From the NCBI GenBank assembly GCA_947629315.1, contig CANRDB010000001.1:4829-68828 (forward strand): 64,000 nt of DNA, read 5' to 3'. Each line of letters opens with the position of its first letter. The stretch's first letter is position 1. This document shows, one piece after another, positions 3,220 through 30,925 of the stretch. Below the pieces are notes generated by a model. That model had not been told where the DNA came from and made no database searches. It was given only the letters and a program-made list of their open reading frames with translations. The position numbers and the translations under genes were made by a program. This DNA comes from an uncultured Bacilli bacterium. Lineage in GTDB: Bacteria > Bacillota_I > Bacilli_A > RF39 > UBA660.

Positions 3220-3257
3220 TATTAGTATACCATGATTTTTCTAAATAAAAAAGGAAG

Positions 3258-4811: not shown

Positions 4812-4963
4812 ACTTAACTCCTCCATTTCTAAATATCAAGTGATTATCAACCACTCTAGTAATATTGTAAAATGGATTGCTTAATAAGTCAAGAAAAAAG
4901 TACAGGAGCTCATGTCTTTTTTAGTGAAAAAGACAAAAGAAAAGCAAAAGAATCACTTATCGT

Positions 4964-5986: not shown

Positions 5987-6018
5987 AAATCTTCCTCCTT
6001 CAATCTTTCATGTCTTCA

Positions 6019-6046
6019 TTATACTACTGGATATTTTTCTTGTCAA
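6019..6046 (-). promoter_or_regulatory. Sigma-A type promoter for recA (TTGACA-17 bp-TATAAT) with a weak Cheo/LexA-like half-site just upstream
   Basis: Reverse complement reads TTGACAagaaaaatatccagtagTATAAT, a perfect -35/-10 with 17-bp spacing. CGAACAAATGTATG at 6056-6069 only partially matches GAAC-N4-GTTC. Confidence 0.5.
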
Positions 6047-6083
6047 TAGTTTTCGCGAACAAATGTATGTAATTTTTGTATCT

Positions 6084-7450: not shown

Positions 7451-7454
7451 CCTC

Positions 7455-8165: not shown

Positions 8166-8637
8166 ATTTTTCTAAAATTTGACTACTGATAGAAGAAATA
8201 ACAACCCCATCATCTGTACCTTGTAAAATCATATCATAATTTTGTAGAGACTTTAAAAACGTTGGATTGGTAACCAAAAACTCTTCTGTAATCGTATGAT
8301 AACCAATAGAACTAAAATAATTATTCATTTTAATCAAGTTGTCAGCATCTTTCGTAATACCGATATAGACATCATATTGACCATTGTTTTCTCGATAGAT
8401 ATAGTTCGTTAACGATAGTGTTTTTTTCTCCATCTCTTCTAAAGAATCATACGTATCATAACGAATAAAATAGAGCATCTCCCCAGAGTTGGAAGTCAAT
8501 TCAAGTCCACGGAAAGATTCATATTGTTCTAGAAATGTTTTTGCTAGAAAAAAACCGACGATTAATGCAATGAATATGGATAAAAAGTATTTTTTCATAA
8601 TATCACCATATTTATTGTATGTCCTCAAACTGTCCAA
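8134..8637 (-). CDS. Hypothetical signal-anchored protein
   Basis: Probable start MKKYFLSIFIALIVGFFLA; no motif recognised. Confidence 0.35.
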   Translation of the reverse strand: MDSLRTYNKYGDIMKKYFLSIFIALIVGFFLAKTFLEQYESFRGLELTSNSGEMLYFIRYDTYDSLEEMEKKTLSLTNYIYRENNGQYDVYIGITKDADNLIKMNNYFSSIGYHTITEEFLVTNPTFLKSLQNYDMILQGTDDGVVISSISSQILEKYEEYVNGSED

Positions 8638-8733
8638 AAATGTCGAATATAGGTCGAATTATTCAATATAGTAGTATAGCGATTTCCTCCTGCAAAGTCA
8701 ATTATTTTCAAGAAAAAAAGTCGACATTGTCGA

Positions 8734-11040
8734 CTACTCTTCTGAAGAATCTTTATCTCCATATTTCACAAGTACTTCTCTTGGTTTAGAACCATTCTGT
8801 GGTCCTATAATTCCTCGCTCTTCTAATAGGTCAATACAACGAGCTGCACGGTTATATCCTAAACGGAATCTTCTTTGTAATAAAGAAGTACTGGCTTTTC
8901 CCTGTTCTACTACAAAATCTACAATTTCATCATAGAGAGGCTCTTCCATCGCATCTGATTTACTTTCCACACCCGTAATAGCATGCTCCTCTTCTATGGT
9001 CTGTTCTAAAGATTTATCATAATTTGCTTTCTGTTGTTTACATACGAAATCAACAATAGCTTTCGTTTCTTCTTCAGAAATAAATGTTCCTTGAATACGA
9101 ATAGGAGTATTAACACCTTGTGGTAAAAAGAGCATATCTCCTTTTCCTAACAATTTTTCCGCACCAATCATATCCAAAATGGTACGAGAATCGATACCAG
9201 AAGATACGGCAAAGGAAATACGAGAAGGAATATTAGACTTAACAACTCCTGTAATAACATCAGTGGATGGACGTTGCGTCGCTACAATCAAGTGAATTCC
9301 TGCTGCCCGCGCCATTTGCGTAATTCTCATGATAGAATCTTCTACTTCTTTAGCAGCTACTAACATCAAATCCGCTAACTCATCGATAATAACGACAATG
9401 TATGGCATCAATTTTACCTTTTCCTCATCTGGCTTTGACTCATTTTCTTTCATCAAATGCTCATTATAACTGGTGATATTCTTGGTCCCACTACGTTCAA
9501 AAATATCATAACGATTCTCCATCTCAGCCACTATTTTTTGTAAGACAATATTGGCTTTTTTAGGATCTGTGACAACTGGCGTTAATAAGTGAGGAACCCC
9601 ATTATAGACGGATAATTCTACTTTTTTAGGGTCCACTAAAACAAGTTTCACTTCATCTGGTTTTGTACGCATCAAGATAGACGCTAAAATACTATTAATA
9701 CAAACAGACTTACCACTACCAGTAGAACCTGCTACCAATAAGTGAGGCATTTTATTAATTTCTAGGAATCGACATTCTCCTTCAATATCTTTTCCTAATA
9801 CTGCCAATAATTTTTTATCTAAAGATTTATCTTCCTCATTAGCTTTTAAAAGTACTTCTCGTACACCAACCATGGAAATGGTAGGGTTTGGAAGTTCAAT
9901 ACCAACCGTATTCTTACCAGGAATAGGCGCTTGAATACGAACATCTTTGGCCGCTAACGAAAGAGCAATCTCACGGTTAAGACCTAATATCTTACTAACC
10001 CTTGTACCCGCTTTAATCTCTAACTCATATTGAGTTACAGCAGGACCGACTTTCGCACGAACTACTTTTCCCTCAATTCCAAAATCTCTTAGTACTTGTT
10101 CTAGAGTTGGAATATTTTTCTTAATTGCCTCTTGATTTTCCTTATTACTATTTTTCGTTGTCTTATTCAAAAGATTCAATGGTGGATATTCCCAATGAGT
10201 ATTTTCTTCATAGACTTCGACTCTCGTCACTTCTCCCGTCTCTTCATCGACAACCGGTTCCATCTTTGTTTGATGCACTTCTTCTCTTGGGATAACACGA
10301 CGATTATCTTCCTCTACCTTATCATCATCCTCAGATTCATCCTCTTCGTCCTCTGATTCCTCCTCTTCCTCATCGTCATCATCAGCCTCTTCATGCTTAC
10401 GACTAGAGTGTTCCGCAATTTTATGCATCTTTTCCTTAGCCTTCATCAAGGTATCATAAATAGAGATACCTGTAAACATAATGAATCCGCAAATCATCAG
10501 AGCAATCGATACGACAATCGTACCATCTAGTGTTAAAAGAGCAACAAACAAGCTAGAGAAAATCGCACCAATTACTCCCCCTCCTAAATTAGACATAGAA
10601 GAAATGAGAGTATTGCCTTCGCTTTTGACAAAGTGCATAACACTATCAATGGTCTCAGAAACAACCGTCGTCGTATCTTTTACCAATTGAAAATGTTTGA
10701 CATCAATATTCTCTAAATGATTTAAATATGCCGTATGTGATAAAATTAACGCACAAATGAGCATAATATAAAGCCCTAAAAATTTAACATTTAAAAAGTC
10801 TGGACGTTCCCGACGGATAATCATAAAAATACCACAGATTCCTACTACAACTAGTAAAATTGCCCACCAAGTTCCCACTAAGAAAGCAGCAAACCCTTTA
10901 ATGATATCCGCAACAATTCCAAAAGGACAACATCCAATAATCGCAATTAATACTAAACCAAAACCTTTTAGTTCTGACAAATTTGTAGATTTTTCCTCTT
11001 TTGCTTTTTTCTTTTGTTTCTTCTTTTCCATCGTCATCAC
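8734..11040 (-). CDS. ftsK: DNA translocase FtsK/SpoIIIE
   Basis: N-terminal TM domain, an acidic linker, an ATPase domain with GSTGSGKS Walker A, and a C-terminal gamma domain. Confidence 0.9.
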
Positions 11041-11096
11041 CTATATTATAAGTATACCATAAAATCAGGCCGTAGAGAAGAAAAAAGAAAATAGAA

Positions 11097-11273
11097 TTAA
11101 CTATTTTCTGCTCTATTTTCAGTATCGTTTAAATTATCATTGTATATTTCATAAATTTTAGGTCCAAATAATACAGCAATCAAAACAATAATAATTACAA
11201 TAATAATAAACTTTGGCGCTGGATTTTTCATATGTGGGTCTCTTCTACTACCCATATTGTCATGTGCTGGCAT
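11097..11273 (-). CDS. Small single-TM membrane protein (below ORF-track threshold)
   Basis: Reverse strand reads MPAHDNMGSRRDPHMKNPAPKFIIIVIIIVLIAVLFGPKIYEIYNDNLNDTENRAENS*, directly downstream of eno. Confidence 0.3.
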   Translation of the reverse strand: MPAHDNMGSRRDPHMKNPAPKFIIIVIIIVLIAVLFGPKIYEIYNDNLNDTENRAENS

Positions 11274-11274
11274 A

Positions 11275-12516
<1,242 letters not shown>

Positions 12517-12615
12517 CTACGATTTCATTTTATCATATTTTTCTATAAAAAAGAAGATTTTCATCATATTCCTCAAAATTTTTTCATACACTTTATTGAA
12601 AAAAGGAGGAAACAG

Positions 12616-13113
12616 ATGATAAACAAAAAAGGAGTTTGGTTTTTAACATTATTCAGTTTAATTTTAGTTCTAAGTGTCTACTATATCACCATGCCACCAG
12701 AATTACTTGTCACTAGTAAAAAAAATCCATCTAATGACAATTCCCAACCAGTTGCCAATATGGAAGAAAGCAGTATCCTTGTCGCATTAAGAGTAGAAGC
12801 AGATGAAACAATGGAAGAAGAACTATCCTCTTTAAAGAAAATCATCAGCAATGCCGAGAGTTCTGTAGAAGATAAGAATAAAGCATTTGAAAAAATCAAA
12901 GAACTGAATTCTAATCGCAGTGCGGAAGAAAATCTAGAATCCAAAATTGAATCTACTTATCAACTCCAATCATTTGTCAAAATTAATGGCAATGTCATCG
13001 AGGTCATCGTTCACAAAAGTGAACACGACAGCAAATTGGCAAATGATATCATGAGAACCATTCAAGAAGAATTTGATACCTCTAAAAATATTACTGTGAA
13101 ATTTCAAAAATAG
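12616..13113 (+). CDS. spoIIIAH: Stage III sporulation protein AH (SpoIIIAH-like), orphan copy
   Basis: N-terminus VWFLTLFSLILVLSVYYITMPP and C-terminus NGNVIEVIVHKSEHDSKLANDIMRTIQEEFDTSKNITVKFQK closely parallel Bacillus subtilis SpoIIIAH. Comparison made from memory. Confidence 0.75.
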   Translation: MINKKGVWFLTLFSLILVLSVYYITMPPELLVTSKKNPSNDNSQPVANMEESSILVALRVEADETMEEELSSLKKIISNAESSVEDKNKAFEKIKELNSNRSAEENLESKIESTYQLQSFVKINGNVIEVIVHKSEHDSKLANDIMRTIQEEFDTSKNITVKFQK

Positions 13114-13194
13114 GCAGAATGAGACACCAAACAAATTTTTTCTCATAAAATACTATGAATATGATAAACCACCCTATCAGGAAGTGAGGGAGCA

Positions 13195-13401
13195 ATGAGA
13201 AAAAATATTTTAACAAACAGAGAAAAAGAAGTGTTTGATTTGTTAATTCAAAACTATACAACCAAAGAAATTGCAAAGCAGTTAAAAATTAGTGAAAAAA
13301 CAGTTCGAAATCACATCTCGAATACCATCCAAAAAATTGGTGTCAAAGGAAGAGCAGCTGCTGTTGTTGAACTATTACGGCTAGGAGAAATTTCTTTATA
13401 A
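13195..13401 (+). CDS. gerE: LuxR-family sporulation regulator GerE
   Basis: 68 aa reading REKEVFDLLIQNYTTKEIAKQLKISEKTVRNHISNTIQKIGVKGRAAAVVELLRLGE, near-identical in pattern to B. subtilis GerE. Confidence 0.85.
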   Translation: MRKNILTNREKEVFDLLIQNYTTKEIAKQLKISEKTVRNHISNTIQKIGVKGRAAAVVELLRLGEISL

Positions 13402-13448
13402 AATGCATGTATATGCATTTTTTTCATATAATTTATTGAGGTGTTACT

Positions 13449-14405
13449 ATGTTAAAAAACATGTCTATGAAAAAAATTATTACCTCTTCTATTGTATTGA
13501 TGATTGTCTCTCTTCTTTCCTTTCTCCCCAACAAACCCAATAATCAGTTAGAAATTCCAACGAGTATTGAATATGTCAGTCAGAATGTTCAAACCCATAC
13601 TATCTACTTATTGGATAACAATAACTATATCAGTAAAACATCAATTAAAATTCGTTCGGAAGATAAAGAAGACATCGCTCGAGAATTGCTAGAGACTATG
13701 ATTCAAGAAGGAAAAAATAGCGATCAAATTCCTAGTGGATTTCTTCCCATTATCCCTAGCAATACAAAAATTAATGCCTTATCCATTCAAGAAGATACTC
13801 TGAAAGTAGACGTTAGTGCAGAGTTCCTAAATACCTCCAAAGAATTAGAAGAAAAACTGATTGAAGCTGTCGTCTATACTTTAACGAGCATTGATGGCAT
13901 CCAAAACATTATTCTTTATGTAGATGGGAACATCCTAACGAAACTTCCGCAAACGAAAATCAATCTTCCTACCACTTTGAATCGTCAAATTGGCATTAAC
14001 AAAACATATCAATTAACCGCTCTTACCAACGTCACCGCCACCAACATCTACTACATTCGTAAATACAACGATAACTACTTCTATACGCCTGTTACTAAGA
14101 TTACCAATGACAATCGAGAAAAAATAGAAATTATTATTGAGGAACTTAGTAGTTCGGTTCCTCAAAACAATCTCATGAGTTTTCTAAATAGCAATACCCA
14201 ACTACTGAATTTTACGATTGATTATGACCAAATGATTATCTGTTTTGATGAATACATTTTTAACGATTTAGAAACCAAAGACATTTTGGAAGAAGTCCTC
14301 GATACCATCTCTCTTTCCATATATGATAACTATCCAGTAGAAGAAGTAATCTTTCAAGTCGATAACCAAGAAATTGCGAAAACTACTGTAAAATCTATTG
14401 AATAA
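13449..14405 (+). CDS. GerM-like (GerMN-domain) sporulation/germination protein
   Basis: Signal anchor followed by two repeated domains resembling the GerMN fold. Follows gerE. Confidence 0.45.
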   Translation: MLKNMSMKKIITSSIVLMIVSLLSFLPNKPNNQLEIPTSIEYVSQNVQTHTIYLLDNNNYISKTSIKIRSEDKEDIARELLETMIQEGKNSDQIPSGFLPIIPSNTKINALSIQEDTLKVDVSAEFLNTSKELEEKLIEAVVYTLTSIDGIQNIILYVDGNILTKLPQTKINLPTTLNRQIGINKTYQLTALTNVTATNIYYIRKYNDNYFYTPVTKITNDNREKIEIIIEELSSSVPQNNLMSFLNSNTQLLNFTIDYDQMIICFDEYIFNDLETKDILEEVLDTISLSIYDNYPVEEVIFQVDNQEIAKTTVKSIE

Positions 14406-14451
14406 TATTATTTTTTATTGTATAATGTACTTGTTCCTTTGGAACGGGTAT

Positions 14452-14528
14452 GTCTCAGTAGCTCAGCTGGATAGAGCATCGCCCTTCTAAGGCGAGTGTC
14501 AGGGGTTCGAATCCCTTCTGGGACACCA
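14452..14528 (+). tRNA. tRNA-Arg (anticodon TCT)
   Basis: Folded by hand. Acceptor GTCTCAG/CTGGGAC, D-arm GCTC..GAGC, anticodon stem TCGCC/GGCGA with loop CTTCTAA, T-arm AGGGG TTCGAAT CCCTT, and an encoded CCA. Confidence 0.85.
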
Positions 14529-14537
14529 TTCGAGAAT

Positions 14538-14562
14538 AACTTGCTTCGGCAAGTTTTTTTTA
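14538..14562 (+). terminator. Rho-independent terminator after tRNA-Arg
   Basis: Hairpin CTTGC-TTCG-GCAAG followed by T8. Confidence 0.6.
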
Positions 14563-14651
14563 TGCCTTTTCAAAATTTTAAAGGAAAATTCCATTCAAAT
14601 TTACATTCTTTCCTATTTCATGATATAATGATAAAAGTAAAATAATAGAGT

Positions 14652-17600
14652 ATGAGGTGTCACATGAGTCAATCGGATAAATTAAAACAAATAACAGGTA
14701 GAGTAAAACGAGAAATGGACCGCACCATTCGTGAAATTAATCGTTACTATGCCAGTTATAGTCAAGAATTAGAAAACAGACAGATTCTAGATCCTAACAA
14801 CGAAGAACAAAGGGCTTTAGCAGAGCAATTCTTTCAAAGAGAGACAGAAAATCTAAAACAGGAATTACATCAATTCATCGAATCTGGCATCAATGAAGAA
14901 GATGCCTTAAAAAGTGAATTACCTCGCGCTTATGCTTTAGTCAAAACAGCGAGTAAATTTTTATGGAACAAGCCTCACTATGATGTTCAATTAATGGGTG
15001 GTATTCTTTTAAATGATGGATATGTTTCCCAAATGGCTACTGGGGAAGGAAAAACGCTAACAGCTGCCCTCCCCGCCTATTTAAATGCTCTTCTCGGTAA
15101 AGGAGTACATGTCTTAACACCAAATGCCTATCTAGCAAAAAGAGACCAAGAAGAGATGGGGGAACTCTACGGCTTACTAGGTCTATCTTGTGGTCTTGCC
15201 AATACTGAACGATTCGATTTTACACAGGCAGATGTACAGCGCCGAATGGATGAAATTATAGCGCGAGAAGTTTCCGAACTTTCTTATCAAATCGACTGTT
15301 CTTCAGCAGGAACTAAAAAAGGACGAAAAACGGATACGGAAACAAGCCAAAGAAGAATTAAAAAATGAATGTCTCGCAAGAAAAAGAAAAGTATATCAAA
15401 TGGATATTGTCTATGGAGCAACCCATGCCATTGCTTTCGATTATCTATGGGATGGTCTTGCGCAAGAGGAACAAGGGACCGTACAACGGATTGGACAACC
15501 AAACTTTGCTATTATCGATGAGGCAGATGACGTACTTTTTGACAGTGCGAGAACTCCTTATATTATTTCCGGTTCTCAAGAAGATGAGGAATTGAGAATT
15601 CGAAGTGAAGATGCCGAAAATGTGGTGAAATCTATCAAACAGGCAAATGAGGCAGTTTCCTATCTATACGATACCATTCAATTTTGGCAAAGAAAAAATG
15701 GAGAAGTTCTAGAAGGAGAAATCCCTGAAAATGAGAAACACAAACGAAAAGATTATGTCTCTTTTGAAAATGACATGAATCTAGCGCTCATTACGACATC
15801 GCAAACTCGTGAATGTGAATTAACCACCCTAGGAGAAACGATTATTTTTCAAAAGTACTATGGACAACAAATTCAAGAGATATTAAATAAAAATCAAGAT
15901 CTTATTATGTCATTGGAACAAAATGGAGCTCCCCTACTAAAATCGAATGTGGACTATTTCATTAATTTAGATGGAGAGATTTCTCTTGCTCCTCGCGCAT
16001 TTGCTTACTTAGTCGCGGGAGAATACATCTCAGAGTTATCTAATCTATTTGTTCATTTCCGTGGGAAAGAACTACTCCAAGATAGTGAATTTATTCAAAA
16101 TGCTTTGAAAGCATGGTTCACGTATCAAGAAGGACATGATTATGCCTTTGATGAGAAAACTTCATCAGTAGTACCAATCATTAACGGTCGAATTTACAAA
16201 GGTAGAAAATACGCTAAAGGATTTCAACAAGCTCTAGAAGAAAAAACCAAAGTATTATTACAAAAGCAATTGGGAGATAGAGCGCCAAAAATCAACGAAT
16301 CCAGACTAACAGAGACATTAGCGTCTATCCCTACCAATGCTTTCTTTGCTCGCTACCAGAAAGTTGGAGGAATGACGGGTACTTCTGCTGTTTTTGCTTT
16401 CAATAACCTTTATGGTCTAGATTCCTATGCGGTACCGAGAAACCGTCCTCGACAAGTTATCGATCACGGAGAGAGATTCTATACAAATAAGGATGCGAAA
16501 TATGAAGCTATTTTCCAATTGGCATTACAAGCCTATCAAACAAAACAACCACTCCTTATTTCTACCACTTCTACGGAAGAGAGTGAACTTCTACAGAAAT
16601 ATTTAATATCTCGATTAGAACAATATCAAAGAGGACTTCCAGAACGGGAAAGAAGAGCGATTAAGATTCCAGTTTTAAATGCCAGTGTTACCAAGTTGGC
16701 AGATGAAGCTAAAATTATATCTAACGCCGGTATTCCTGGGGCGATTACCATTGCAACTGAAATGGCTGGTCGTGGAACAGATATTAAATTAGGAGGAGAA
16801 GTTCCTGATAAACAAGAATTAATTCAGTCCATGCTTAAAATTAAAGTAAGGTCTCTTGTGGAAAAAAGAAAAAAAGCAGGTCTTGTCGATGAACAAAAAT
16901 ATAAAACACAACTGACTTATAAAAAAAGAATAGACCAAGAAGCAAGACAGTGGATTATTGATAACATCGGTATGGATGCCATTGCCAAAGAAATTGAAGA
17001 ACCTTATCGCCTATTAAAACAAGAAAAAGAACAACGAGAAAGTTTTATTAAAAACAACTCAGCGTTTAAAGGATTAAAAGTTGTCGTTTGTGGACATTTC
17101 CCATCTGCACGGACAGATGACCAAGTCAAAGGTCGATGTGGAAGACAAGGTGATCCAGGAGAATATATCTTCCTAAGTGATCCTGATGATTTAGCGCATG
17201 TTGGTATCAATCCTACTACCATTGAACGTCTCAAGATTATCGCTAATAGCCAACCAGATCACTGCATCGTAGAAACAGCGAACTCCAAACTATTCCACCT
17301 TCGAAAAATGATTTTATCCGCACAACGTCATAACGATAATATGAGTCATGAAAACATTCTCTCCTCTCTTCAATTTGATGCCGCTATCAGTACTTGCCGA
17401 GAGAGTGTTAGAAAAGTAACTGATCGATTCAAGCAAACAGAAAATTACATATCTTATATGAAGATAGCGATTGATAATACCTGTCAAAGTATTCTAGAAG
17501 GTTCTTCTGAAAATAAGAACTATACTTATCCTGATATAGAACGAAGTACCATCCAAAAGGCACATCTTAATCTTCCAAAAGTATGTTCTCTTTGTGAAGA

Positions 17601-18366
17601 CTTCCTTGGGGTAGAGATATCCCCTGAACTACTCGCATCCGCTAGAACAGTTCGGGATGTGAAAAATATAATCGAACAGAAAAGTACTCAGAGATTAGAA
17701 GTCTATATCGATCAACAGAAAAAGGAACAAATCAAAAAGTTAAAAGAGAAATATCAAAAACATAATGCGAGAATCTTAAACATTTCGGAAATCGTCAATT
17801 TATTCCGACAGACAGGAATTCAAGGATTAAAAGGTTATGTGCAAGAGCGTCTTAACTTCAAAAAATATGCAAAACTTTCCGATATCGAATTAGAAGCGGA
17901 AGTTACCGAAACGCTCAATGAATCTTTCAAAGAAAAATTTTATCAAACTATCAATCGTGCATGGGATAAATTTGAAGAAGATATTGAGGAATTTAAATTG
18001 CAAGTACAATGGACGAATCAATTTGAGTCTCATCCGTTGTCACCAGAAAGCATTCAAAGTTCTATCCAACGTGATTTCTTTCACTGGATGGATACATACC
18101 AAGCAAGACTCGTCCATGATACGATTCATCCAAGCATTTCTAAAGAGAAAGGTCCAAAGGAAGTGTATCCCGTAAGAATTACGACCGAGGGCATCCAAAG
18201 AGTTGCCGATGATTATGATGAAGAATTACAGGATGAAATTACCAACATTTCGGAAGAGGCATCTGTTCTTGGAGTACTTTCTAGTGATGAAATCGTCCCA
18301 TACAAATTAAAGCCATACGTCAGTATGCCAAATCGAAACGTAGAAAACAGAGGAAGAAGAAGATAA
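14652..18366 (+). CDS. Giant divergent SecA-like translocase ATPase, about 1225 aa; reading frame interrupted by a +1 shift at the A6 tract 15315-15320
   Basis: ORF 14652..15368 carries SecA NBD1 ([48 protein letters not shown]). ORF 15400..18366 continues in the +1 frame, which is open from 15262, with [45 protein letters not shown] and [14 protein letters not shown]. Removing one A from the A6 tract gives a continuous ...[13 protein letters not shown]... reading. Confidence 0.6.
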
Positions 18367-18447: not shown

Positions 18448-18717
18448 ATGAATGATGAAATATATCAATATGCTCTACAAAAAATTGAGTGTGATAGTCA
18501 ATTCAAGCCAATTGGATGTTATGGTAATTCCCGTGGCAGTACTGGCCCAACTGGCCCTACCGGTCCGACTGGTCCCCAAGGACCCGCTAGCATCACCATA
18601 GGTACCACAACAACAGGCGCTCCAGGAACAAGTGCAGCTGTTACCAATTCTGGTACTAATCAAAATAGTATTTTAAATTTTGTGATTCCTGCAGGAGCAA
18701 CTGATGCTATGTCATAA
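18448..18717 (+). CDS. Small collagen-like (GPT-repeat) protein with a short N-terminal domain and a short C-terminal domain; BclA-like
   Basis: RBS ataggaggt. Sequence MNDEIYQYALQKIECDSQFKPIGCYGNSRGSTGPTGPTGPTGPQGPASITIGTTTTGAPG...ILNFVIPAG. The C-terminal domain is homologous to the C-terminus of the 29421..29834 segment. Confidence 0.6.
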   Translation: MNDEIYQYALQKIECDSQFKPIGCYGNSRGSTGPTGPTGPTGPQGPASITIGTTTTGAPGTSAAVTNSGTNQNSILNFVIPAGATDAMS

Positions 18718-18742
18718 ATCACAAAAAAAGAATTGATTAGAA

Positions 18743-20977
18743 TCAATCCTCAATTTCTTTAATCAACATTTGATATAACGCACGATTTCCTTCCTCTGTT
18801 AAATGAATTTTATCCACTCGTACATATTCTTTATGTTGTTGAATCTCTTCATAAAAAGGAATAATATGGAGAGACGATATTCCCAATGTTTCTAGTAATA
18901 TCTCGTCCTCTTCTGTCATCGCTACTACATATAACTCATTTTCTTGGCACAATTGGAAAACTGTTTGTATTTCTTGTTCCAATCTTGGTACCTGACTATC
19001 AAAAGCTACTACTAATCGATAAGTTAACGTATTACTATCCGCAGCTTTTTGAAGTTCTTGTTGCAAATCTTGCCAAGTAAAATCTTGCCGAACAATAAAC
19101 TGTGCTTGTTGATATTCCTGATGTAGTTCATTAAAAATATTCACTAAAACATCATTACCGTAAAAGGTAATTTTATTTTTTAATTCTTCTTCATGATGAT
19201 GAATAATCTCTTCTTTTTTCTGTTGATATCGATCTAGATAAACTTGATAAATAGATTGATAAATTAAGTTGGTGTAAGCCTTTCTTCCTTCTGGAGTTAA
19301 GTGGATACCATCCGCATAAAAATACTTTGAATGTCCTTGTGATGCAGTCTCCCAATCAATAATATGTAAATTAGAATGACTCTTACTTAACTCTTTTAAT
19401 TTACTATTTACATGGACATCTTTATCGTTAGTAACCGTAATCCAAAAGACATCTCTATCACCACACGTTTGTAAAATTTCTTCCTTACAAGAAGAAGAAC
19501 AATCTCCATTCGCACCCAAATTCAATATTACAGGATTACCTAACAGATTACTATCCTCTAATTCTTCTAAAATACCGTTCGCTACCCAAATAGAACGTGA
19601 TACCTTCGCATCAAAATATCCATTTGGAAATTGTTTATAGAGATTATCAACAGCTCCTAACATAATAGAATCCCCGACTCCAACTACGGATAACTCAGAA
19701 ACAATCTTTTGAATTTCTTGTTCCCCATTCTCTAAATCCTCTAAAACAGAGAACCAATCTTCTTGTTCCTGTTGTAATCGATCCGCATACTCTTTTTGTT
19801 TTTGTTGAATAACCTCTTCATTAGCCGCTAACTCTTCTTTTAGTCTTTTCATTTCTGCCGTATGATCCTTCGTTTGTGCATAACAATAAACACCAGGAAC
19901 ACAGATGACACACAATATGATAGCCATCGCTGCATGCATTCTCGTTCTAGCATGGGGTCGACTACTGATGCTAAAATGAAAAACGGAACCTACTACAAGC
20001 ACTCCTAAAAGAATCGATAAAATCCGTACAGAATCCGACATTGAAAAGGCTTGCAAAAAGTAAATAATCGGATACTGAACCAAGTAGATGCAATAACTTC
20101 TATCTGAAAACCAATGAACAATTCGGTTTCCTACCCCTGCTAATTTGTTTACCATCAAAGTACTATAATCAATCATCCGACAAGTAATAAGAGATACTAT
20201 CAACATTGCTACTGCCCAAGAAGGTGCAGAAGCATCGATTGTTAAAAATAACCAAACTAAGAGAACAAAATATCCTCCAAAAAGACCATAGGCAATCAGA
20301 GAATGTTTCATGTTTTTTAGAATAAGTGGATAATAATAAAACTGAATAAACCCTAAAGTCATTCCCCAAAATAAGGAAAACATTCTCGTAAACGTATGAT
20401 AGTAAACCACCATAATATCTTGCGTGCCACTCATTTGATAAAAATACCAAGCACTTCCTATCGATACTACCAATAATAGTAAACAAGGAATCATTTTATG
20501 AATATGATCTCCTATTTTACGTAATATTTGATAGAAGAATGGAAAAAGCAAATCAAATTGCAATAAAATAGAAATATACCATAAATGCATAAATGGAGAA
20601 TCTAAGTGTCTAGCAAAATAATCTAAATTCGCCCCTAATTGCCAAAAATTATTATATCCTAACAAAACAGATGTTGTCTCTGGTTTTAAATTCAACCATG
20701 TATACTGGGAACAAAAAAACACAACAAAAAGAGTTAAGAACACAGTCAATAACAAAGGAAAATATATTTTAGTAAACAGTCTCTTATAATATTCCCAAAT
20801 AGAAAAATGATTCTTATGAAAAGCTGAAACGCACGATAGATAGCCACTTAACACAAAGAAACAACAGACCGCTAAATAGCCTCCTTTTAAAACATGCAAA
20901 TGATAAAGCAAAACGGCAATGCATGATAACACTCGTAAATAATCTAGTGCATAATAATACTTCTTAGTACTTTCCAT
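18743..20977 (-). CDS. Acyltransferase-3 family membrane protein fused to SGNH hydrolase and an extra C-terminal domain (OatA-like O-acetyltransferase)
   Basis: N-terminal ten-TM acyltransferase_3 pattern (YLRVLSCIAVLLYHLHVLKGG) and an SGNH motif (VGVGDSIMLGAVDNL). Confidence 0.7.
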   Translation of the reverse strand: MESTKKYYYALDYLRVLSCIAVLLYHLHVLKGGYLAVCCFFVLSGYLSCVSAFHKNHFSIWEYYKRLFTKIYFPLLLTVFLTLFVVFFCSQYTWLNLKPETTSVLLGYNNFWQLGANLDYFARHLDSPFMHLWYISILLQFDLLFPFFYQILRKIGDHIHKMIPCLLLLVVSIGSAWYFYQMSGTQDIMVVYYHTFTRMFSLFWGMTLGFIQFYYYPLILKNMKHSLIAYGLFGGYFVLLVWLFLTIDASAPSWAVAMLIVSLITCRMIDYSTLMVNKLAGVGNRIVHWFSDRSYCIYLVQYPIIYFLQAFSMSDSVRILSILLGVLVVGSVFHFSISSRPHARTRMHAAMAIILCVICVPGVYCYAQTKDHTAEMKRLKEELAANEEVIQQKQKEYADRLQQEQEDWFSVLEDLENGEQEIQKIVSELSVVGVGDSIMLGAVDNLYKQFPNGYFDAKVSRSIWVANGILEELEDSNLLGNPVILNLGANGDCSSSCKEEILQTCGDRDVFWITVTNDKDVHVNSKLKELSKSHSNLHIIDWETASQGHSKYFYADGIHLTPEGRKAYTNLIYQSIYQVYLDRYQQKKEEIIHHHEEELKNKITFYGNDVLVNIFNELHQEYQQAQFIVRQDFTWQDLQQELQKAADSNTLTYRLVVAFDSQVPRLEQEIQTVFQLCQENELYVVAMTEEDEILLETLGISSLHIIPFYEEIQQHKEYVRVDKIHLTEEGNRALYQMLIKEIED

Positions 20978-21122
20978 ATTTCAAACCTCATTCATTGTGA
21001 TTATATATCATAAAGCCTTAAAATTCAAGACACTTTACGTCAATCCTAACTAATATTTTGTGAGAAAAAAACATGATTATTTGTTTCATTTTATTTTATG
21101 CAATTAGAAAGGAGTTATACTG

Positions 21123-23120
21123 TTGAATCAAAAAAGAGTGGCATTATATCTACGATTATCCAAAGAAGATATCGACAAGCCAACCAAGTTCTCTATCAGC
21201 GAAAGTATCAAAAATCAAGAACTATTACTGCGTGAAGAAGTGAAAAAACACCCTGATTGGGTCGTAGTAGCTGTCTATTCTGATGAAGACTTTTCAGGAG
21301 CAGGAACTTATCGACCAAGCTTTGACAAAATGATTCATGCCTGTGAAAAGCACATGATTGATATCATTCTCTGTAAAAGTCAGTCCCGTTTTTCTAGAGA
21401 TATGGAATTAATTGAAAAATATATTCATAACAAATTTAAAGAATGGAATATACGATTCATTAGTATCGTAGATAATGCCGATACTGATAACGATGGCAAT
21501 AAAAAATCTAGACAGATTAATGCTCTTGTCAATGAATGGTTTCTAGAGGATTTATCCGATAATATTCGGGCAACTTTACGAACAAAATGGCAGCATGGAG
21601 AATGTACCGCTGCTTTCGCTAAATATGGATTTCTAAAAGATCCCCAACATAAAAATCACCTAATCATAGATACGGTTGCTAGTCAAACCATTCAAGAAAT
21701 TGCTCATCTCTTTTTAGAGGGAAAAGGTCCAGAAACCATCGCTCACATTTTAGAACAGAAGCATATTCCTAGTCCTTATGAATACAAACTACAAATGGGA
21801 AGTAAACTAAAAATTCCTTTGCTTTCCTTAAACCATCCAAAAATAATTACTAAAAACGGAAAATATATTTTTACCCTTTTTCCAAGTGGAGAACCAATAG
21901 ACCATGTCGTCCTATCCATCCTACCATTTCAAGATTACGATATGACACTAACTCTCATAAAACAAAGTGGCAATGTAAAGGTTTATTATTCCCAGGAGAA
22001 ATTCTCTTCTGCTATCGAAACCGTATTGCCGGTTGAACATTCTTCATTTTGGAGACAATTGCCTATCAATCTTTCTATTTCTCATATTCAACTACTGGCT
22101 ATCTATTGTCTTCCAAACAATTTAGAAAAAACTTATTTAGAATGGGAAATAAACATCCATACCCTACCGTCTCATGATTTTTCTTTAAACATCCAATCCT
22201 TTGATGCAATACACCAACCAATTGATTTTTGGCAGTATCGAATCAGAAAAAAATATCAGTGGAATAGTCGGACAATCTATCACATTTTGAAAGATGAAAC
22301 TTATCATGGTACCTTAATTCAAGGAAAAACAAAGCGAATCAGTTATAAAAATCATACTAGTATTGCTACTCCCAAAGAGCAATGGTATGTTCAAGAAAAT
22401 ATTCTCCCTAAAATTCTAGATGATCAAACTTGGATAGCTATTCAAAATAAATTACAACTACATCCACGCGCAAGCAAAAATGGAAAACACCCTATCTTTA
22501 CTGGAAAAGTTTTTTGTGGAGTATGTGGAAAACCTCTTCAAAAAAACTCGAGCAGTTCTCTTGCTTCCCCTGTTAAAAAAGAATATTTAATTTGTAAAGC
22601 AAGAAAAGAACATTGGAAGAATTGTGAAAACAAAAAATCATTTCCCGTTTTAGAATTACAAAAATTAATCATTACTCAATTTCAAAATTTATGGAATTCC
22701 TATTACGATATGACTACCTTAAAGCAGATTCATAAGGAAGAACCCCATCATCAAACTATAGACGATCTCATGAAAGAAGAACAAAATTTACAAGAAATTA
22801 TCCAGCAGAATAACCAAATTCTTTATCAATTATACAAAGATAAAAGCACTGGCCTCATGGATGATTCTTGTTTTCATACCCTACTTCTACAAAATCAACA
22901 GGAAATGGATACTTATCACCAAAGATTGCAAATGATTGCCCAAGAGTTAAAACAGATTCAAACGAAACAGGAATTTTTCATGTCTACTGTGTGTGAATTT
23001 CTCAATACTCATTCCTTTGAAGACTATTTTTCAACCATTCTACAGCATTTTATTAGCAGCATTTTCATTGGAAAGCTGAACCATCATCAAAGAACAATCC
23101 AAATTCATTGGAAAATCTAA
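21123..23120 (+). CDS. Large serine recombinase (SpoIVCA/CisA-like), TTG start
   Basis: [13 protein letters not shown] catalytic-serine motif, a resolvase N-domain, a recombinase domain, a Cys-rich zinc ribbon (CGVCGKPL...[11 protein letters not shown]) and a coiled-coil tail. RBS aaaggag. Confidence 0.85.
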
Positions 23121-23132
23121 TTTTGTGGTTTA

Positions 23133-23281
<149 letters not shown>

Positions 23282-23301
<20 letters not shown>

Positions 23302-24796
23302 TAACTACTCTTTTTCCCTGTTCTATATTGCCAATTTGTATTCGTTGAATAAAATTCTTTACCGTCTTAAGGGAAAGTTCAAGTTTTCTTTTAGAAAAAG
23401 AAAATGACATTTGTTCTTTTTTCATATTGGCAAGAGTATTTGATAACTTCTCTAACTCTTTGATATAACTTTTTTTGAGATTTTGAAAAACCTCATCATC
23501 TAGTTGTTGTTGAACATAATCGTCATACACTTTTTTTAAGCCTCGTTCTTTTTGATGGTAATCTTTTTCTAATCGTTCAAATTCTTTCTTATATAATAGA
23601 TTCTGTTCTATACTATATTGCTTCTCATATTCTAAAAGCAATTGTTCGTCGACAAATTGATGATAAAACTTCAAAAATTCTTTGAACACTAAAGATTCTA
23701 TCACATCCAAACGAATAGAGGTATGATTATCACAATGTTGCCAATAACTTCTTCTATCACGACAAACTAAATACGAATACACAGAATGGCTAGAAGAATT
23801 TTTTTCAAAGGATTGTCCACATTTTTGACAATATATTTTTTTACTAAACTCATAAATTTTACCCGTTTTAGATTGAATTCTCGTCTTTTGTTGCATTCTT
23901 CTTTGTACCTCATTCCACATCGATAAAGAAATAATCGGGTCATGCTGATGAGATACAACAATCCAATCCTTTTTTTGAAGAGAAATTACCTTTTTATTTT
24001 TATAGGAAATTTTTCGATATTTTCCCTGTACTACACTACCAATATACACTTCATTTTTTAAAATATCTGCAATTGTTTTTTCACTCCATTGATTACTAGT
24101 CGATGGTCCATAATATTTAGAACCTATTTCTTTTTTATATTGACTGGGAGTTGGAATCCCTTGATGATTCAAACACTGCTTAATTTTAGAATATCCATAA
24201 CCTTTCGCATATAACGCATATATTTGTTGAACATATTTAGAAGCAATCGGGTCAATTTCTAAATGATTTTTATCTTTCTTTTGGTAACCAAAAGGCGCAA
24301 AAGAACCGGTAAATAGACCAACTTCTTTTTTATTTCGTAATGTTTTACGAATATTTATAGAAGAATCTTCCAAATACCATTCATTCATCAAAGCATTGAT
24401 TTGTCTGGTTTTTTTATTTTCTTCTACAGAGGTATCAGCATGATCAACTAAACTGATAAAACGAACGTTCCACTCTTTAAATTTATTATGAATATATTGT
24501 TCAATTACTTCTAAATCTCTCGAAAAGCGAGACTGACTCTTACATAATACAATATCAATATTTCCTTGTTCACAATCTTTTAGCATGCGGATAAAAGCTG
24601 GTCTTTCTCTATCGATACCAGAGTAATCCTCATCAATATAAATATCAAAGATATCCCATCCTTCTTCTTGAACTTTTTGAAGTAACATTCTCCTTTGATT
24701 TTGAATACTTTCACTAAAGTCTTTTTTATCAATATCTTCTTTGGATAATCGCAAATAGATTGCTACTCTATTGTTCCCTATCATAAGATTCCTCAT
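23282..24796 (-). CDS. Large serine recombinase, paralog of 21123..23120
   Basis: [13 protein letters not shown] motif with extensive N-domain identity to the upstream recombinase (…[35 protein letters not shown]…), a zinc ribbon (CQKCGQ…[11 protein letters not shown]) and a coiled-coil tail. Confidence 0.85.
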
Positions 24797-24983
24797 TTTG
24801 AGAAAGAATTTCTTGTTCTAATACCGCCAACAACTGACGATTAAAAGTTTCTTTCCTTTGTTCCATAGACTTTTCCTCATCATGGAATACATTGATTATT
24901 TCAATATTATATTTCATATTTTCACCATTACAAAATATGAAAAAAAGCGAAGATTTATATCTCCACTTCTTTCTCCTGCAAAA

Positions 24984-26012
24984 TCATTTTCGCTGTTGGC
25001 TAATATCTAATACCCATAAAATATTCGATGGTAGAATACTTCCACAATACGAGCATATCTTATCAAAGAGTCCCACATTGGCGCCACAATTGTGACATTT
25101 TTTCACACTATTCATCGTAAACTTCGGATAATAATTTTGATTACGAATCAAGGTTACTGTTTCTTTTCCCTGCACTTTTTTGATGCGACCATTGCGTTCA
25201 AAATACTTTCGAATAATAAAAGTAATTCGAATGGCAGGAATATTCCCCTTCTTGATAACTTTATAAGTATCATACTCTAAAATTTCAAAATCTACTAAAT
25301 CTTGATATTGAGGAAAAATTTTCTCATCATAGTAATGCACCAACAATTGGTAATTTAAATCTTGAATAATCTTTTGATTACTCATCCGAACTTTATCAAT
25401 CATAATTCTATCATTCCTTAAGTCACGATAGGTAATCACTTTTACCAAAAGATAAGGAATCAAAAGAAAAGTATACAATAGATGAAGAGTAAATAGCATA
25501 ACAGGTAGTGTCACGAACATCAACATAACGGCAATAAACCAAGGATACTCTCCTGACTGTAAAGTTCCCATAAACGATATACCTGTCAAAATCATGCAAG
25601 TGCTTCCCAAAAAGATTTTATACTTTTTCATAGAAAAAATCTGTTTAAAGGATTGTGTCAAATTTTTTTGATGAACTCCCTGTTCTAAATAAAAAGAAGC
25701 TCCACAATAAGGGCAACCATCGTAAAACTCTTTTTCAGTAGCATGATATCCACATTCAGAACAAGTAAATTCATTATCCCCTCTAGATAATGTCATTGTA
25801 TAAGTTATGTTATCATCAAATTTCTTTTCACGATAAAGACGTTTTCCACCTTGATAATAATTTTTCTCTATCTTATTAGCTTTATAAACAGAATCGTTTC
25901 GGTTTCCATTTAAAGTACGAACAAATAACTGATCTTTATGTCGAAAAATCTCCTCTACTACAAGATTCTTTTTAGCAAGTCTTTGTAAATGCATTTGTAA
26001 AGGACTTGGCAT
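24984..26012 (-). CDS. Membrane protein with two CxxC…CxxC zinc-ribbon motifs flanking a TM region
   Basis: CSECGYH…CPYCGA near the N-terminus, TM helices in the middle, and CHNCGAN…CSYCGS at the C-terminus. Confidence 0.4.
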   Translation of the reverse strand: MPSPLQMHLQRLAKKNLVVEEIFRHKDQLFVRTLNGNRNDSVYKANKIEKNYYQGGKRLYREKKFDDNITYTMTLSRGDNEFTCSECGYHATEKEFYDGCPYCGASFYLEQGVHQKNLTQSFKQIFSMKKYKIFLGSTCMILTGISFMGTLQSGEYPWFIAVMLMFVTLPVMLFTLHLLYTFLLIPYLLVKVITYRDLRNDRIMIDKVRMSNQKIIQDLNYQLLVHYYDEKIFPQYQDLVDFEILEYDTYKVIKKGNIPAIRITFIIRKYFERNGRIKKVQGKETVTLIRNQNYYPKFTMNSVKKCHNCGANVGLFDKICSYCGSILPSNILWVLDISQQRK

Positions 26013-26084
26013 ACTATCACACTCCTACTATTCTCATTATAACAAAAAAAGTCCTCATCACAACTATTTTTTTCTATTTTGACA

Positions 26085-26159
26085 ATGAACTATGGAGCAA
26101 CTGGTCCAGTAGGTCCTACTGGAGACGTTGGCCCTACGGGTCCTACTGCACTCACTTAA
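26085..26159 (+). pseudogene. Very short collagen-like ORF/fragment ([24 protein letters not shown])
   Basis: Read in the correct frame. No RBS, and the ATG overlaps a TTGACA hexamer. Its 5' end is collinear with the start of the 29421..29834 segment. Confidence 0.35.
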
Positions 26160-26256
26160 AAGTGGCACTTTTGCCAAAAATTAGAACGAAAATAAGCACT
26201 TTACATTTCATTTGAAATATTATATAATACAAGTAACTAGAAAGAAGGGATTATAA

Positions 26257-27651
26257 ATGAAAAAAGTAGTAGGAACAGTAATGAAAGGGATGCTTGTTAC
26301 TTCAGGAGTTGTCACTGCTGTTGGTTGTACATTAGCTATCAGTAATCATTTGTTGAAATCAGATGATCTTGTTCTATCCAATCACAATGGTAGCGAAGTA
26401 AAACAAGCAAATGTTTTAGCGGTCGCTCAAAATCAAGTAAAGGAAGCGGAAGTTCAAGAGGCAAAAGCCAACCAAGAATTGACAAAAGCAACAAATGAAA
26501 AAGCAGAGGCAGAAAAAGAAGTTCAAAAAGCGAAAGAAACTGTGAAAGAGGTTCAAAAGGAAAAAAGCAAAGCCGAAGCACAATTAAAAGAAGCCAAAAC
26601 AGAAGAAGAAAGAAAACAGGTAGAAGATCAAATTAAAGTTTTAGAAGAAAAAGTGAAAGAAGCTGAAAATAATCAAAAAGCAGCAGAATCAAAAGTACAA
26701 GAAGCAGAGACTAAGGTTCAAGAGGCTGAAGTGAAAGTTCAAGAGGCTGAAGCCAAGGTTCAAGAAGCTGAGGCTAAAGTTCAAGAAGTACAAGAGACAG
26801 AAATGAAGAAACAAGAAGTAGAAAAACAAGTTCAAGAAGTTCTTCCAGCAAATCCTTCAAAAGAAGAAACTCAAACTACTGTCAAAGAAGAAAACACTAC
26901 CAAACCAGTTGAAAATAATCAACAAGTAACGACTCAAGAAACAAAGCAACCAGAGACAAAACAAACTGAAACGAAACAACCAGAGACAAAGCAAGTTGAA
27001 ACAAAACAGACTGAAACGAAAAAAGAAGAATCTTCAACAAACAATAATTCTTCTAATAATAGTTCTTCTAGATTAACGCAAGAGGCTTTAGAGGCTGCAG
27101 CGAGAGCAGAACAAAAATGGAATGAGGAATATCAAAAATTCCTTGCTGATCAAAAAGCAGAAGCAGATGCTAAAAAGCAAGCAAGAGATGAGGAAGCTAA
27201 AAAAGCAGAAGAGGCTGCTGAAAAAGAATTGGAAGAAAGAAGACAAAGAGAATCAACAGACAGTTTAAAGAACTTTGGTTCAGCGACTACTGATACCGTA
27301 TTTGGAGATAGAACTTTTACATTTGCTCAAAAGAATGTAGATTTACCATTTAATCCAGATATCAAAGAAAATCCAAAGAAAGTGACTTGTACAGGAGACC
27401 ATTGCGGAAAGAATGAACAAGGTTACATTTGGTTTGCTAGATTTAATAACAATTTAAATCTTGATATCTTTAAAGAACCTGGTAGTGATCGTTATGTAAG
27501 TAGTGTTCTTATTGGAAAACGTGGCGATGTAGAATATTGGACGCAATATGCACCAAGTGTTGTAAACGGTCATCAATTTGTAGAGTGGAAAGTAACAGAT
27601 ACTACTGAATATGGTATGAAAATTAAAGTTTATACTGCCATTTATAAGTAA
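26257..27651 (+). CDS. Secreted repeat-rich coiled-coil protein with a globular C-terminal domain
   Basis: Signal peptide, KVQEAE tandem repeats (18-bp units at 26690-26790), TKQ(P/T)E repeats (15-bp units at 26940-27010), and a Cys-containing C-terminal domain. RBS gaaagaaggga. Confidence 0.6.
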   Translation: MKKVVGTVMKGMLVTSGVVTAVGCTLAISNHLLKSDDLVLSNHNGSEVKQANVLAVAQNQVKEAEVQEAKANQELTKATNEKAEAEKEVQKAKETVKEVQKEKSKAEAQLKEAKTEEERKQVEDQIKVLEEKVKEAENNQKAAESKVQEAETKVQEAEVKVQEAEAKVQEAEAKVQEVQETEMKKQEVEKQVQEVLPANPSKEETQTTVKEENTTKPVENNQQVTTQETKQPETKQTETKQPETKQVETKQTETKKEESSTNNNSSNNSSSRLTQEALEAAARAEQKWNEEYQKFLADQKAEADAKKQARDEEAKKAEEAAEKELEERRQRESTDSLKNFGSATTDTVFGDRTFTFAQKNVDLPFNPDIKENPKKVTCTGDHCGKNEQGYIWFARFNNNLNLDIFKEPGSDRYVSSVLIGKRGDVEYWTQYAPSVVNGHQFVEWKVTDTTEYGMKIKVYTAIYK

Positions 27652-27830
27652 TGAAAGAGCGAAACAATTCGCTCTTTTCTTTTGACCTATGATTAAAACT
27701 ATCCTTTTAGAATAATATACATTGAGGAGGTTTGATGATGAAAGTAATCAGTCATTTTAAAGATAATGGTGAAAATTTAACAAAAGTTATAGAAGAATTG
27801 TTAAAAAATATCATTCAAAAATAAAGGCAA

Positions 27831-30925
<3,095 letters not shown>

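Follow-up and report, generated by a model that had tools for sequence, protein, structure and literature searches.

The stretch of DNA analysed here, which is 64,000 nucleotides long and is referred to as the window, contains a single collagen-like (CL) gene on the + strand which is broken into four pieces by three intervening elements and which, once rebuilt, has 268 codons; in the structural claims made about this gene, taken jointly, we have very high confidence. Piece A (18448-18701, + strand) carries the start codon, the N-terminal domain, the collagen run CL1 and module 1 (SITIGTTTTG...NFVIPAGAT). The ORF called for it, of 89 codons in total, ends only at 18717, having taken in four codons of the element (DAMS) and a stop, so that what had been described in the original prediction as an intact gene is a 5' piece with a short element-encoded tail. 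Piece B (23148-23264, + strand) is composed of 39 collagen triplets without a start codon, and in the integrated state its frame extends into element 2 for 11 residues before reaching a stop. The 15 collagen codons of piece C (26102-26146, + strand) are followed in the integrated state by ALT and a stop, and piece D (29444-29834, + strand) consists of a long (GD[IV]GPTGPT)n collagen run, module 2 (ALTIGTVTT..., with a 15-residue tail) and the stop codon. A start codon and an N-terminal domain are present in the first collagen cluster only, the other clusters starting abruptly after non-coding DNA, and all clusters except the last stop a few codons past the end of the repeat.

Excision of 18702-23147, 23265-26101 and 26147-29443 gives a 268-codon ORF without stops or frameshifts in any of the pieces. 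The rebuilt protein is composed, in this order, of the N-domain, a short collagen run, the 38-residue module 1, a long collagen run, and module 2, which is a second copy of the module plus the tail; partial excision products would be of 135 or 142 aa and lack module 2. A Gly-Pro-Thr-rich central collagen-like region is present in the rebuilt protein, none of the pieces matched a Pfam family, BclA_C (PF18573) is absent, and the protein ends in module 2. The sole match of a PDB profile search with the protein family was the collagen-like stretch in BclA structure 1wck, with none for the modules. Immediately downstream lies a gene with glycosyltransferase-2 and TPR domains (29840-30925, + strand), a conserved partner which adjoins the collagen-like gene in 46 of 85 loci. 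Also in the window are a GerM/Germane gene and a SpoIIIAH-like gene, the latter with 49.7 bits for PF12685, where the cutoff is 30.6. A frameshift is present in the adjacent SecA-like gene and may be a sign of some gene decay or of an error in the assembly. Two further Gly-X-Y frames on the + strand (31688-31858 and 38771-38872) were rejected as collagen, being antisense of proline-rich minus-strand genes, and a promoter and terminator scan of 18.2-30 kb returned counts equal to the shuffled expectation and was uninformative.

Recombinases and cargo of the three elements

Element 1 (18702-23147, 4446 bp) carries an acyltransferase gene of the Acyl_transf_3 family (18743-20977, - strand) and the recombinase gene rec1 (21123-23120, + strand), which codes from a TTG start for a protein of 665 aa, in which the catalytic domain is followed by an inserted segment of about 145 aa. 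Element 2 (23265-26101, 2837 bp) is composed of rec2 (23282-24796, - strand, 504 aa), a 49-codon ORF overlapping the start of rec2 (24768-24917, - strand) and a gene for a zinc-ribbon membrane protein (24984-26012, - strand), and element 3 (26147-29443, 3297 bp) of a gene for a secreted coiled-coil protein (26257-27651, + strand), a 29-codon ORF (27735-27824, + strand) and rec3 (27831-29420, + strand, 529 aa). All three recombinase ORFs are intact, with no stops or frameshifts, and in Pfam all three products matched Resolvase (PF00239), Recombinase (PF07508) and Zn_ribbon_recom (PF13408) above cutoff. The motif of the nucleophile serine is YLRLS, invariant in the rec1/rec2-family alignment, and YTRLS in rec3; rec1 and rec2 are 53% identical, in the catalytic domain only, and rec3 is about 30% identical to both.

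Pfam reported no DUF4368 in rec1-3 at E ≤ 1e-3, and this domain is precomputed on most rec1 homologues. XisF was the best NCBIfam match of rec3 and among the top two for rec1 and rec2, at 68-92 bits against a cutoff of 375; naming the recombinases from NCBIfam was discarded, since the matches were to XisF and Ccr only and far under cutoff. No mobilisation gene was evident in the 2.8-4.4 kb elements. Nor was a directionality factor identified among their genes, the candidates being only the small ORFs of about 29-49 codons, of which the 29-codon one is conserved upstream of rec3-type genes in the window and in two related loci (L002 and L006). A phage origin was also rejected: the best match to rec2 in the phage collection (MT837840.1, 40%) is a bacterial fragment of high GC, in which neither collagen nor att similarity is found.

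Attachment sites and crossover

Of the six collagen/non-collagen junctions, five have the sequence GCAACTG (at 18697, 23143, 23260, 26097 and 29439), and the sixth, at the left end of element 3, reads CCTACTG (26142); the AC dinucleotide is present in the same codon phase at all six. GCAACTG also occurs four times in piece B. With AC taken as the crossover dinucleotide, each attP was rebuilt from the left arm of the right junction and the right arm of the left junction, and the dyad scores about AC were 24/32 for element 1, 19/32 for element 2 and 22/32 for element 3, against a background over all window positions (about 64,000) with a mean of 9.05 and an SD of 2.56. Dyad symmetry about the central dinucleotide is the established form of a serine-integrase attP (PMC5595907). 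For elements 1 and 3 the true partner arm is the single best of the approximately 64,000 window positions. In the case of element 1 the best partner of the right-end arm in the 64 kb is 18702-18733 (24/32, about 5.8 SD over the mean, the next best scoring 21), which lies directly 3' of a GCAACTG core and in the same register. The attP of element 2 contains a perfect 11-nt block, TATTTTGACAA/TTGTCAAAATA, at symmetric positions, and the attP symmetry of elements 2 and 3 was also found as inverted repeats I2 and I10.

Judging by these arms, the true left junction of element 1 is the GCAACTG at 18697-18703, four codons before the ORF stop, because the best dyad partner is at 18702-18733 and the arm motif is found at both ends of homologous elements. 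The predicted attL of element 1 (18670-18733, + strand) is then composed of a host half-site, the core GCAACTG (18697-18703) with AC at 18700-18701, and the element half-site P' TGATGCTATGTCATAAATCACAAAAAAAGAAT, and its attR (23114-23178, + strand) of the element half-site P AATCTAATTTTGTGGTTTATGTCTTTGCAGCA, AC at 23146-23147 and a collagen half-site. The junctions of element 2 have AC at 23263-4 and 26100-1 and cores GGAGCAACTG at both ends, and those of element 3 have AC at 26145-6 and 29442-3. The junction words predicted for the excised state are attB1 GATTCCTGCAGGAGCAACTGGTCCTACGGGGGCA and attP1 TTATGTCTTTGCAGCAACTGATGCTATGTCATAA for element 1, attB2 TGGTCCTACCGGAGCAACTGGTCCAGTAGGTCCT and attP2 AATGAACTATGGAGCAACTGAACCTTATCTGTTT for element 2, and attB3 TGGCCCTACGGGTCCTACTGGTTCTACTGGAGAT and attP3 CTTTGAATGGTTTGCAACTGCACTCACTTAAAAG for element 3. 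It should be noted that excision in phase follows automatically from a codon-phased target, and hence is no evidence of selection.

The original prediction had placed this left junction 150 bases further upstream, at 18548-18563, on account of an agreement in 14 of 16 positions with 23144-23159, a 16-mer that lies within attR of element 1. The agreement was confirmed, and the codon phase is equal at both 16-mers (23146 - 18550 = 4596 = 3 x 1532). The pair is however not specific and is explained by generic GPT-codon repetition, which the original prediction had itself given as a ground for refutation, each 16-mer having five to seven other matches of at least 14/16: when up to two mismatches were allowed, the right-hand 16-mer CAACTGGTCCTACGGG had eight matches in the window and the left-hand CAACTGGCCCTACCGG had six, all but one of them inside the collagen-like repeat pieces and the exception, at 38766, antisense of an unrelated gene. 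The word at 18548 matches 15/16 at 29494, 29602 and 29629 in the last piece, which is above its 14/16 to 23144-23159. The absence of any match to the 16-mers in shuffled sequence means that the collagen repeats are real, and does not make the pair special. The 24 matches of a degenerate 20-nt GPT-GPT pattern are all on the + strand and form four clusters (18535-18581, 23140-23267, 26103-26149 and 29463-29824). Against the right-end arm of element 1 a junction at 18548-18563 has a dyad score of 8/32, which is chance, and the register 9 nt upstream has one of 10/32. The attL of a large serine recombinase is composed of a host half-site and an element half-site, and 18550 is unsuited as attL because both of its flanks are collagen-repeat DNA without an element half-site; the site at 18548-18563 (+ strand) belongs to the ordinary Gly-Pro-Thr repeat of CL1 and is not a recombination site of element 1. 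Of the predicted deletion, which was to fuse the only start-bearing piece in frame to the downstream pieces, the recombinase-bounded segment and the in-frame outcome stand, and the position of the junction and the intactness of the gene do not.

Uninterrupted homologues and interrupted relatives

A search of 5.8 billion proteins returned many uninterrupted homologues of 180-230 aa with 97-99% coverage of the rebuilt protein and the same layout of N-domain, CL1, module 1, CL2 and module 2. Several of these read ...IPAGATGPTG... across the position of junction 1, as after a deletion from 18700, and module 1, which holds many of the invariant columns of the alignment, is present in all 15 aligned uninterrupted homologues. 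Close architectural relatives end in BclA_C (P0003, P0016, P0017, L132, L167 and L171). A scan with the family profile, using one genome per species, gave 490 confirmed loci, 80 of which were kept; these loci are mostly from gut "uncultured Bacilli / Tenericutes / Clostridia", together with Paenibacillus and Hominifimenecus.

The locus L003 belongs to a close relative, with a 94% identical RecA encoded on the same 183,300-bp contig, and shows the SecA-like, collagen and glycosyltransferase synteny of the window. It has one element, homologous to element 2, and nothing is inserted at the sites of elements 1 and 3. The recombinase of this element is 48-52% identical to that of element 2 and the zinc-ribbon gene 74%, there is an extra cargo of upp and a permease, and the two elements have in common the CAACTG core and the TTGTCAAAA/TTTTGACAA arms. 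A second related locus, L006, has at least three elements, one of which carries a rec1-like recombinase (46% identical) with the same acyltransferase cargo as element 1. The attL of this element reads ...GGAGCAACTG up to the junction and CTCCGATGACATAAACCAAAAAAG beyond it, and its attR reads ...TTTCTGTGGTTTAGGTATTCGAAGCAACCG up to the junction; these arms are clearly homologous to 18703-18731 and 23115-23145 of the window, and here too the best dyad partner lies right after the core. The arm sequences of element 1 recur in L172, L167 and L171, with homologous P' arms in L006, L167 and L171, and an arm motif, TGTGGTT(T/A)A.GTC, recurs together with its complement in the loci of rec1 relatives. 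L171 and L172 have two or three recombinases, a rec1-type right junction is found in L036 and a rec3-type right junction in L002.

Searching with rec1 identified at least 25 clusters of relatives of 640-700 aa. The four that were looked up (P0253, P0254, P0267 and P0271) all end only a few bases away from a collagen fragment that lacks a start codon, and two of the four neighbouring collagen genes have a terminal BclA C-terminal domain. Including L006 and L036, six out of six rec1-family elements are located in or beside collagen-like genes, which is a small sample. Shorter relatives of about 530 aa adjoin Amidase_3 genes, with no collagen nearby, and collagen targeting is for this reason the property of a sub-clade. 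Among 80 IMG/VR relatives (near-full-length matches at up to 41% identity) only one abuts a collagen region, in the contig L132, where the recombinase is directly followed by a start-less collagen region ending in a BclA_C-like domain. In L024 a recombinase and a collagen-like gene are 2.3 kb apart, but the 5' end of the latter looks uninterrupted, so that the locus was not counted as an interruption, and a 33-nt non-matching tail in L085 was set aside as an assembly artefact.

Excision state and selection

In same-species contigs from two other metagenome assemblies attL1, attR2, attL3 and attR3, i.e., four of the six junctions, were all in the integrated form, and the only differences from the window were in the repeat number of piece D (-135 bp, in L082) and one 36-bp indel. 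The predicted attB and attP words were absent from all collected loci and the attB1 word from the JGI metagenome contigs, and exact look-up of the full and partial rebuilt proteins in the protein collection gave no match. All of these are weak negatives, given bulk faecal DNA at low coverage (about 2x) and a species represented in low-coverage ENA assemblies only. Among five interrupted genomes (the window, L002, L003, L006 and L036) the start-less module 2 of piece D has a dN/dS of 0.07-0.19, and between L003 and L006 there are 13 synonymous and no non-synonymous changes in this module. This ratio argues that the downstream pieces are still translated, which would require reconstitution of the gene, and some of the divergence may predate the insertions.

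Discussion

We propose that three independent integrative elements have inserted at Ala-Thr-Gly codons (GCA-AC-TG), in or beside the Gly-X-Y repeat of one gene. Each recombinase, possibly with a small directionality factor, would join its own attL to its own attR and so release a circle; the full-length protein would need all three excisions, and the integrated state would yield only an 89-residue stub. That the locus has the anatomy described and that excision restores the function of the gene is, in our judgement, probable. The excision would occur in the mother cell during sporulation, a cell that differentiates terminally, much as for skin, SPbeta and gin, with the genome of the spore keeping the elements. 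Conditional excision in the mother cell is the timing that we prefer, and also the weakest step of the proposal, to be taken as tentative; it is the most attractive because of the SpoIIIAH-like and GerM-like genes, the BclA-like architecture, the BclA_C domain of the relatives and the pairing with a glycosyltransferase. For the collagen-like protein itself we infer, from these sequence features, a role at the spore surface.

The main rival to this proposal arises from the recombinase family itself. The elements could be selfish units in the style of Tn4451 and Tn5397, for which the abundant GCAACTGG words of the collagen repeat are a safe landing pad, with the gene being knocked out and excision being sporadic and without any link to development or to a need for the protein. 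The DUF4368 domain borne by the rec1 homologues marks a multi-targeting, transposon-like clade of large serine recombinases (LSRs) (Durrant et al., 2022, PMC10083194), and TnpX of Tn4451 excises and integrates without any factor, directionality factor included, or developmental cue (PMC5704250). The cargo of metal ATPases, upp with a permease, and an acyltransferase is of the genomic-island type, there are multiple elements per gene at varying positions of the repeat, and the relatives of about 530 aa are found beside Amidase_3 genes. On the other hand, all pieces are open and conserved, the start-less 3' module having a dN/dS of about 0.1 in five interrupted genomes, and all recombinases are intact; the elements of 2.8-4.4 kb show no evident mobilisation gene, and the targets are repeatedly BclA-like genes in Bacillota with sporulation genes. 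The crossover dinucleotide of Tn4451 and Tn5397 is GA, and that of the elements described here is AC. We regard selfish insertion as a serious possibility, although one that we doubt.

Three other explanations appear much weaker. The locus could be a decaying pseudogene with old insertions, on which the recombinases no longer act and of which the pieces are relics; only integrated junctions were found in three independent assemblies, and the SecA-like neighbour is frameshifted. Pieces and recombinases free of stops and frameshifts, three perfect att pairs with identical central dinucleotides, and purifying selection on the 3' piece make such decay improbable. A system of variation, in which the recombinases, or else RecA or slippage, would make different deletions among the pieces of the repeat and so produce collagen stalks of varied length, could draw on the variable repeat number of piece D between samples (-135 bp in L082) and the four GCAACTG copies in piece B. 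We consider it very improbable, as there is for each recombinase a single cognate attL/attR pair, whose arms are distinct, partial excision gives truncated products without module 2 rather than a graded series, and the length polymorphism is ordinary tandem-repeat slippage within one piece. The last of the three is that rec1 or another process deletes 18550-23146 through the 14/16 match in CL1 and joins the N-domain directly to piece B, with GGCCCAACTGGTCCTACGGGG as the expected junction word. The CAACTGG common to the two sites does include the AC dinucleotide of the junctions, in an identical codon phase, and the deletion would leave 218 codons of open frame. However, no element half-site lies to the right of 18550, as the chance-level dyad shows, with a far better site 150 bp downstream, and it is this downstream-type arm that homologous elements bear; the agreement of the 16-mers is generic; and the protein would be without the 38 residues of module 1, which none of the 15 aligned uninterrupted homologues lacks. 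Serine integrases recombine attL with attR, and not an attB-like site with attR, which also counts against this deletion. The protein that it would produce had no match on exact look-up in the protein collection. The 18550-23146 deletion is effectively refuted in silico, and we give it hardly any credence.

If excision does take place in the mother cell, a full-length surface protein would be made only when all three excisions succeed, which would amount to a developmental, and possibly bet-hedging, control of the spore surface. A wider hypothesis is that a clade of recombinase elements in gut Bacillota has specialised on the Ala-Thr-Gly codons of collagen repeats in BclA-like spore-surface genes, and that in the present case three recombinases assemble a four-piece gene in the mother cell; this, like the control just described, is speculative, and we would not be surprised if it failed. 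The locus as a whole is in any case more interesting than the single junction that was first proposed. The three recombinase and att sets (attB, attP, attL and attR of about 64 bp, with one common AC) could serve as orthogonal integrase tools. For annotation the locus suggests that where short "collagen triple helix" ORFs lie beside recombinase genes in gut Bacillota genomes, they may belong together as a single gene and not be separate ones.

Comparison with known systems

In full-text searches no paper turned up that connects collagen-like or bclA genes with serine recombinases or with intervening elements, nor any report of an interruption in the target gene family, and collagen goes unmentioned in the key papers, both those on intervening elements and those on the target sites of recombinases. 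Intervening elements of sporulation genes that are excised by LSRs include skin in sigK (SpoIVCA), SPbeta in spsM (SprA and SprB), gin in gerE (GirC and GirX), and skinCd (PMC4191935, PMC5499854, PMC5595907, PMC5025042). The elements in the window resemble skin, SPbeta and gin in that each encodes its own LSR, lies inside a coding sequence, has a short common core within imperfect inverted repeats, and restores the frame by precise excision, which is here predicted. The host likewise has sporulation genes, the target resembles a spore-surface protein made in the mother cell and, as is the case for gin, the elements are not prophages. They differ in being very small (2.8-4.4 kb) and in their number, with three different elements in one 0.8-kb gene where the examples compared here have one per gene. 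Their target is repeat DNA with many equivalent cores, so that positions vary between genomes, and in contrast to the known systems their directionality factors are candidates only and their sporulation control is putative.

With Tn4451/Tn4453 (TnpX), Tn5397 (TndX) and the DUF4368 clade the elements share LSRs from Clostridia and Bacilli, a small non-phage format with cargo, DUF4368 on the rec1 homologues, and multiple targets per genome. For rec1-3 themselves Pfam gave no DUF4368 match at E ≤ 1e-3; unlike in Tn4451 and Tn5397, all six inferred crossovers are at AC instead of GA and no mobilisation gene is seen. While those elements are multi-locus, all six rec1-family elements, a small sample, are in collagen-like genes.

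In the heterocyst elements of cyanobacteria (e.g., that of fdxN, with XisF) excision is developmentally timed, as is here proposed, and the genes concerned serve a terminal cell type alone. The top NCBIfam matches of rec1-3 include XisF, but the 68-92 bits, against 375 required, mean that these are not XisF equivalogs, and phylum, cell type and target genes all differ. The BclA exosporium glycoproteins share with the window protein an N-terminal domain, a Gly-Pro-Thr-rich stalk, a C-terminal trimer-type domain and an adjacent glycosyltransferase; the window protein differs in ending in the 40-residue module 2 and not in BclA_C, and in having an internal copy of the module.

Interrupted genes that are rebuilt in a terminal cell are represented by a few textbook cases, namely sigK, spsM, gerE and the heterocyst nif, fdx and hup genes. 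The type of system, a gene-intervening element bounded by a recombinase, is known; what appears to be new is the class of target, the presence of three distinct elements in one 0.8-kb gene (with at least three in a second genome), and a recombinase sub-clade tied to collagen-repeat DNA. To the known cases the locus would add collagen-like surface glycoprotein genes as a new target class, an unusual density, with 0.8 kb of coding sequence having taken up three elements whose recombinases are all distinct, and a recurrent recombinase clade which recognises repeat DNA with many equivalent sites.

Cargo genes and recombinases of the elements

In locus L040, which comes from another genome, an acyltransferase 49% identical to the copy in element 1 and a collagen-like gene that carries no interruption are arranged convergently (L040 positions 7089-10197, compared with window 18448-20977). 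The L040 acyltransferase lies 26 bp past the stop codon of the collagen-like gene, a spacing equal to that in the window, and no recombinase was found near this gene pair. Either the acyltransferase was captured by element 1, or L040 is a place where an element decayed. The same pair of uracil phosphoribosyltransferase and permease genes was observed as cargo of an element-2-type element in a close relative (L003, 6563-8712) and of an element-1-type element (L006, 682-2858); cargo modules apparently move between the two types.

An insertion of about 145 residues separates the catalytic and recombinase domains in the family of rec1, the large serine recombinase of element 1 (residues about 235-379; gene at window 21123-23120; other members at L006 5679-7718 and L036 4894-6984). 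It has no match in Pfam and is missing from rec2 and rec3, the recombinases of elements 2 and 3. Immediately upstream of rec3-type genes there is an ORF of 29-31 codons which is conserved in three genomes (window 27735-27824; L002 about 2411-2506; L006 about 9556-9464, minus strand) with the pattern M.[IV]...F.DNG..L.E[IV].E.[FL]L, and a 49-codon ORF on the minus strand (window 24768-24917) overlaps the start of rec2. Both are possible candidates for directionality factors or leader peptides.

Surroundings of the collagen-like gene

Directly upstream of the collagen-like gene, a frameshift within an A-rich run divides a SecA-like gene into two ORFs (window 14652-15368 and 15400-18366); the L003 orthologue is a single ORF of 1124 aa, and the split may reflect either pseudogene formation or a fault in the assembly. 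The adjacent genes for a SpoIIIAH-like protein (PF12685, above cutoff; 12616-13113) and a GerM/Germane-domain protein (13449-14405) indicate that core endospore genes are retained in this gut Bacilli genome.

Comparison with the same-species locus L082 showed a difference of 135 bp, or five 27-bp repeat units, in the last collagen piece (window 29444-29700) and a 36-bp indel downstream of it (32490-32527), both of which are ordinary repeat-length polymorphism. Two apparent Gly-X-Y frames on the plus strand (31688-31858 and 38771-38872) are not collagen genes; each lies antisense to the stretch of a minus-strand membrane-protein gene (30961-31899 and 36709-38907, respectively) that encodes an N-terminal region rich in Pro, Val and Ala.

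Related recombinases at other loci

In three loci, rec2 relatives about 530 aa long were found directly upstream of Amidase_3 genes (L175 6001-8971; L176 3631-5821; L177 6001-8191), with a 156-aa amidase ORF standing alone downstream in L176 and L177 and conjugation genes nearby in L177. The Amidase_3 gene may be another target interrupted by this rec2-related group. L171 (Logan contig, 1-18094) provides a second case of a collagen-like gene with several interruptions, here of the type ending in BclA_C (the C-terminal domain of BclA-type exosporium proteins): together with three serine-recombinase genes, this contig carries a collagen-like 5' piece of 220 aa, with three copies of the small module, and a separate 156-aa BclA_C ORF on the same strand about 7.5 kb away.
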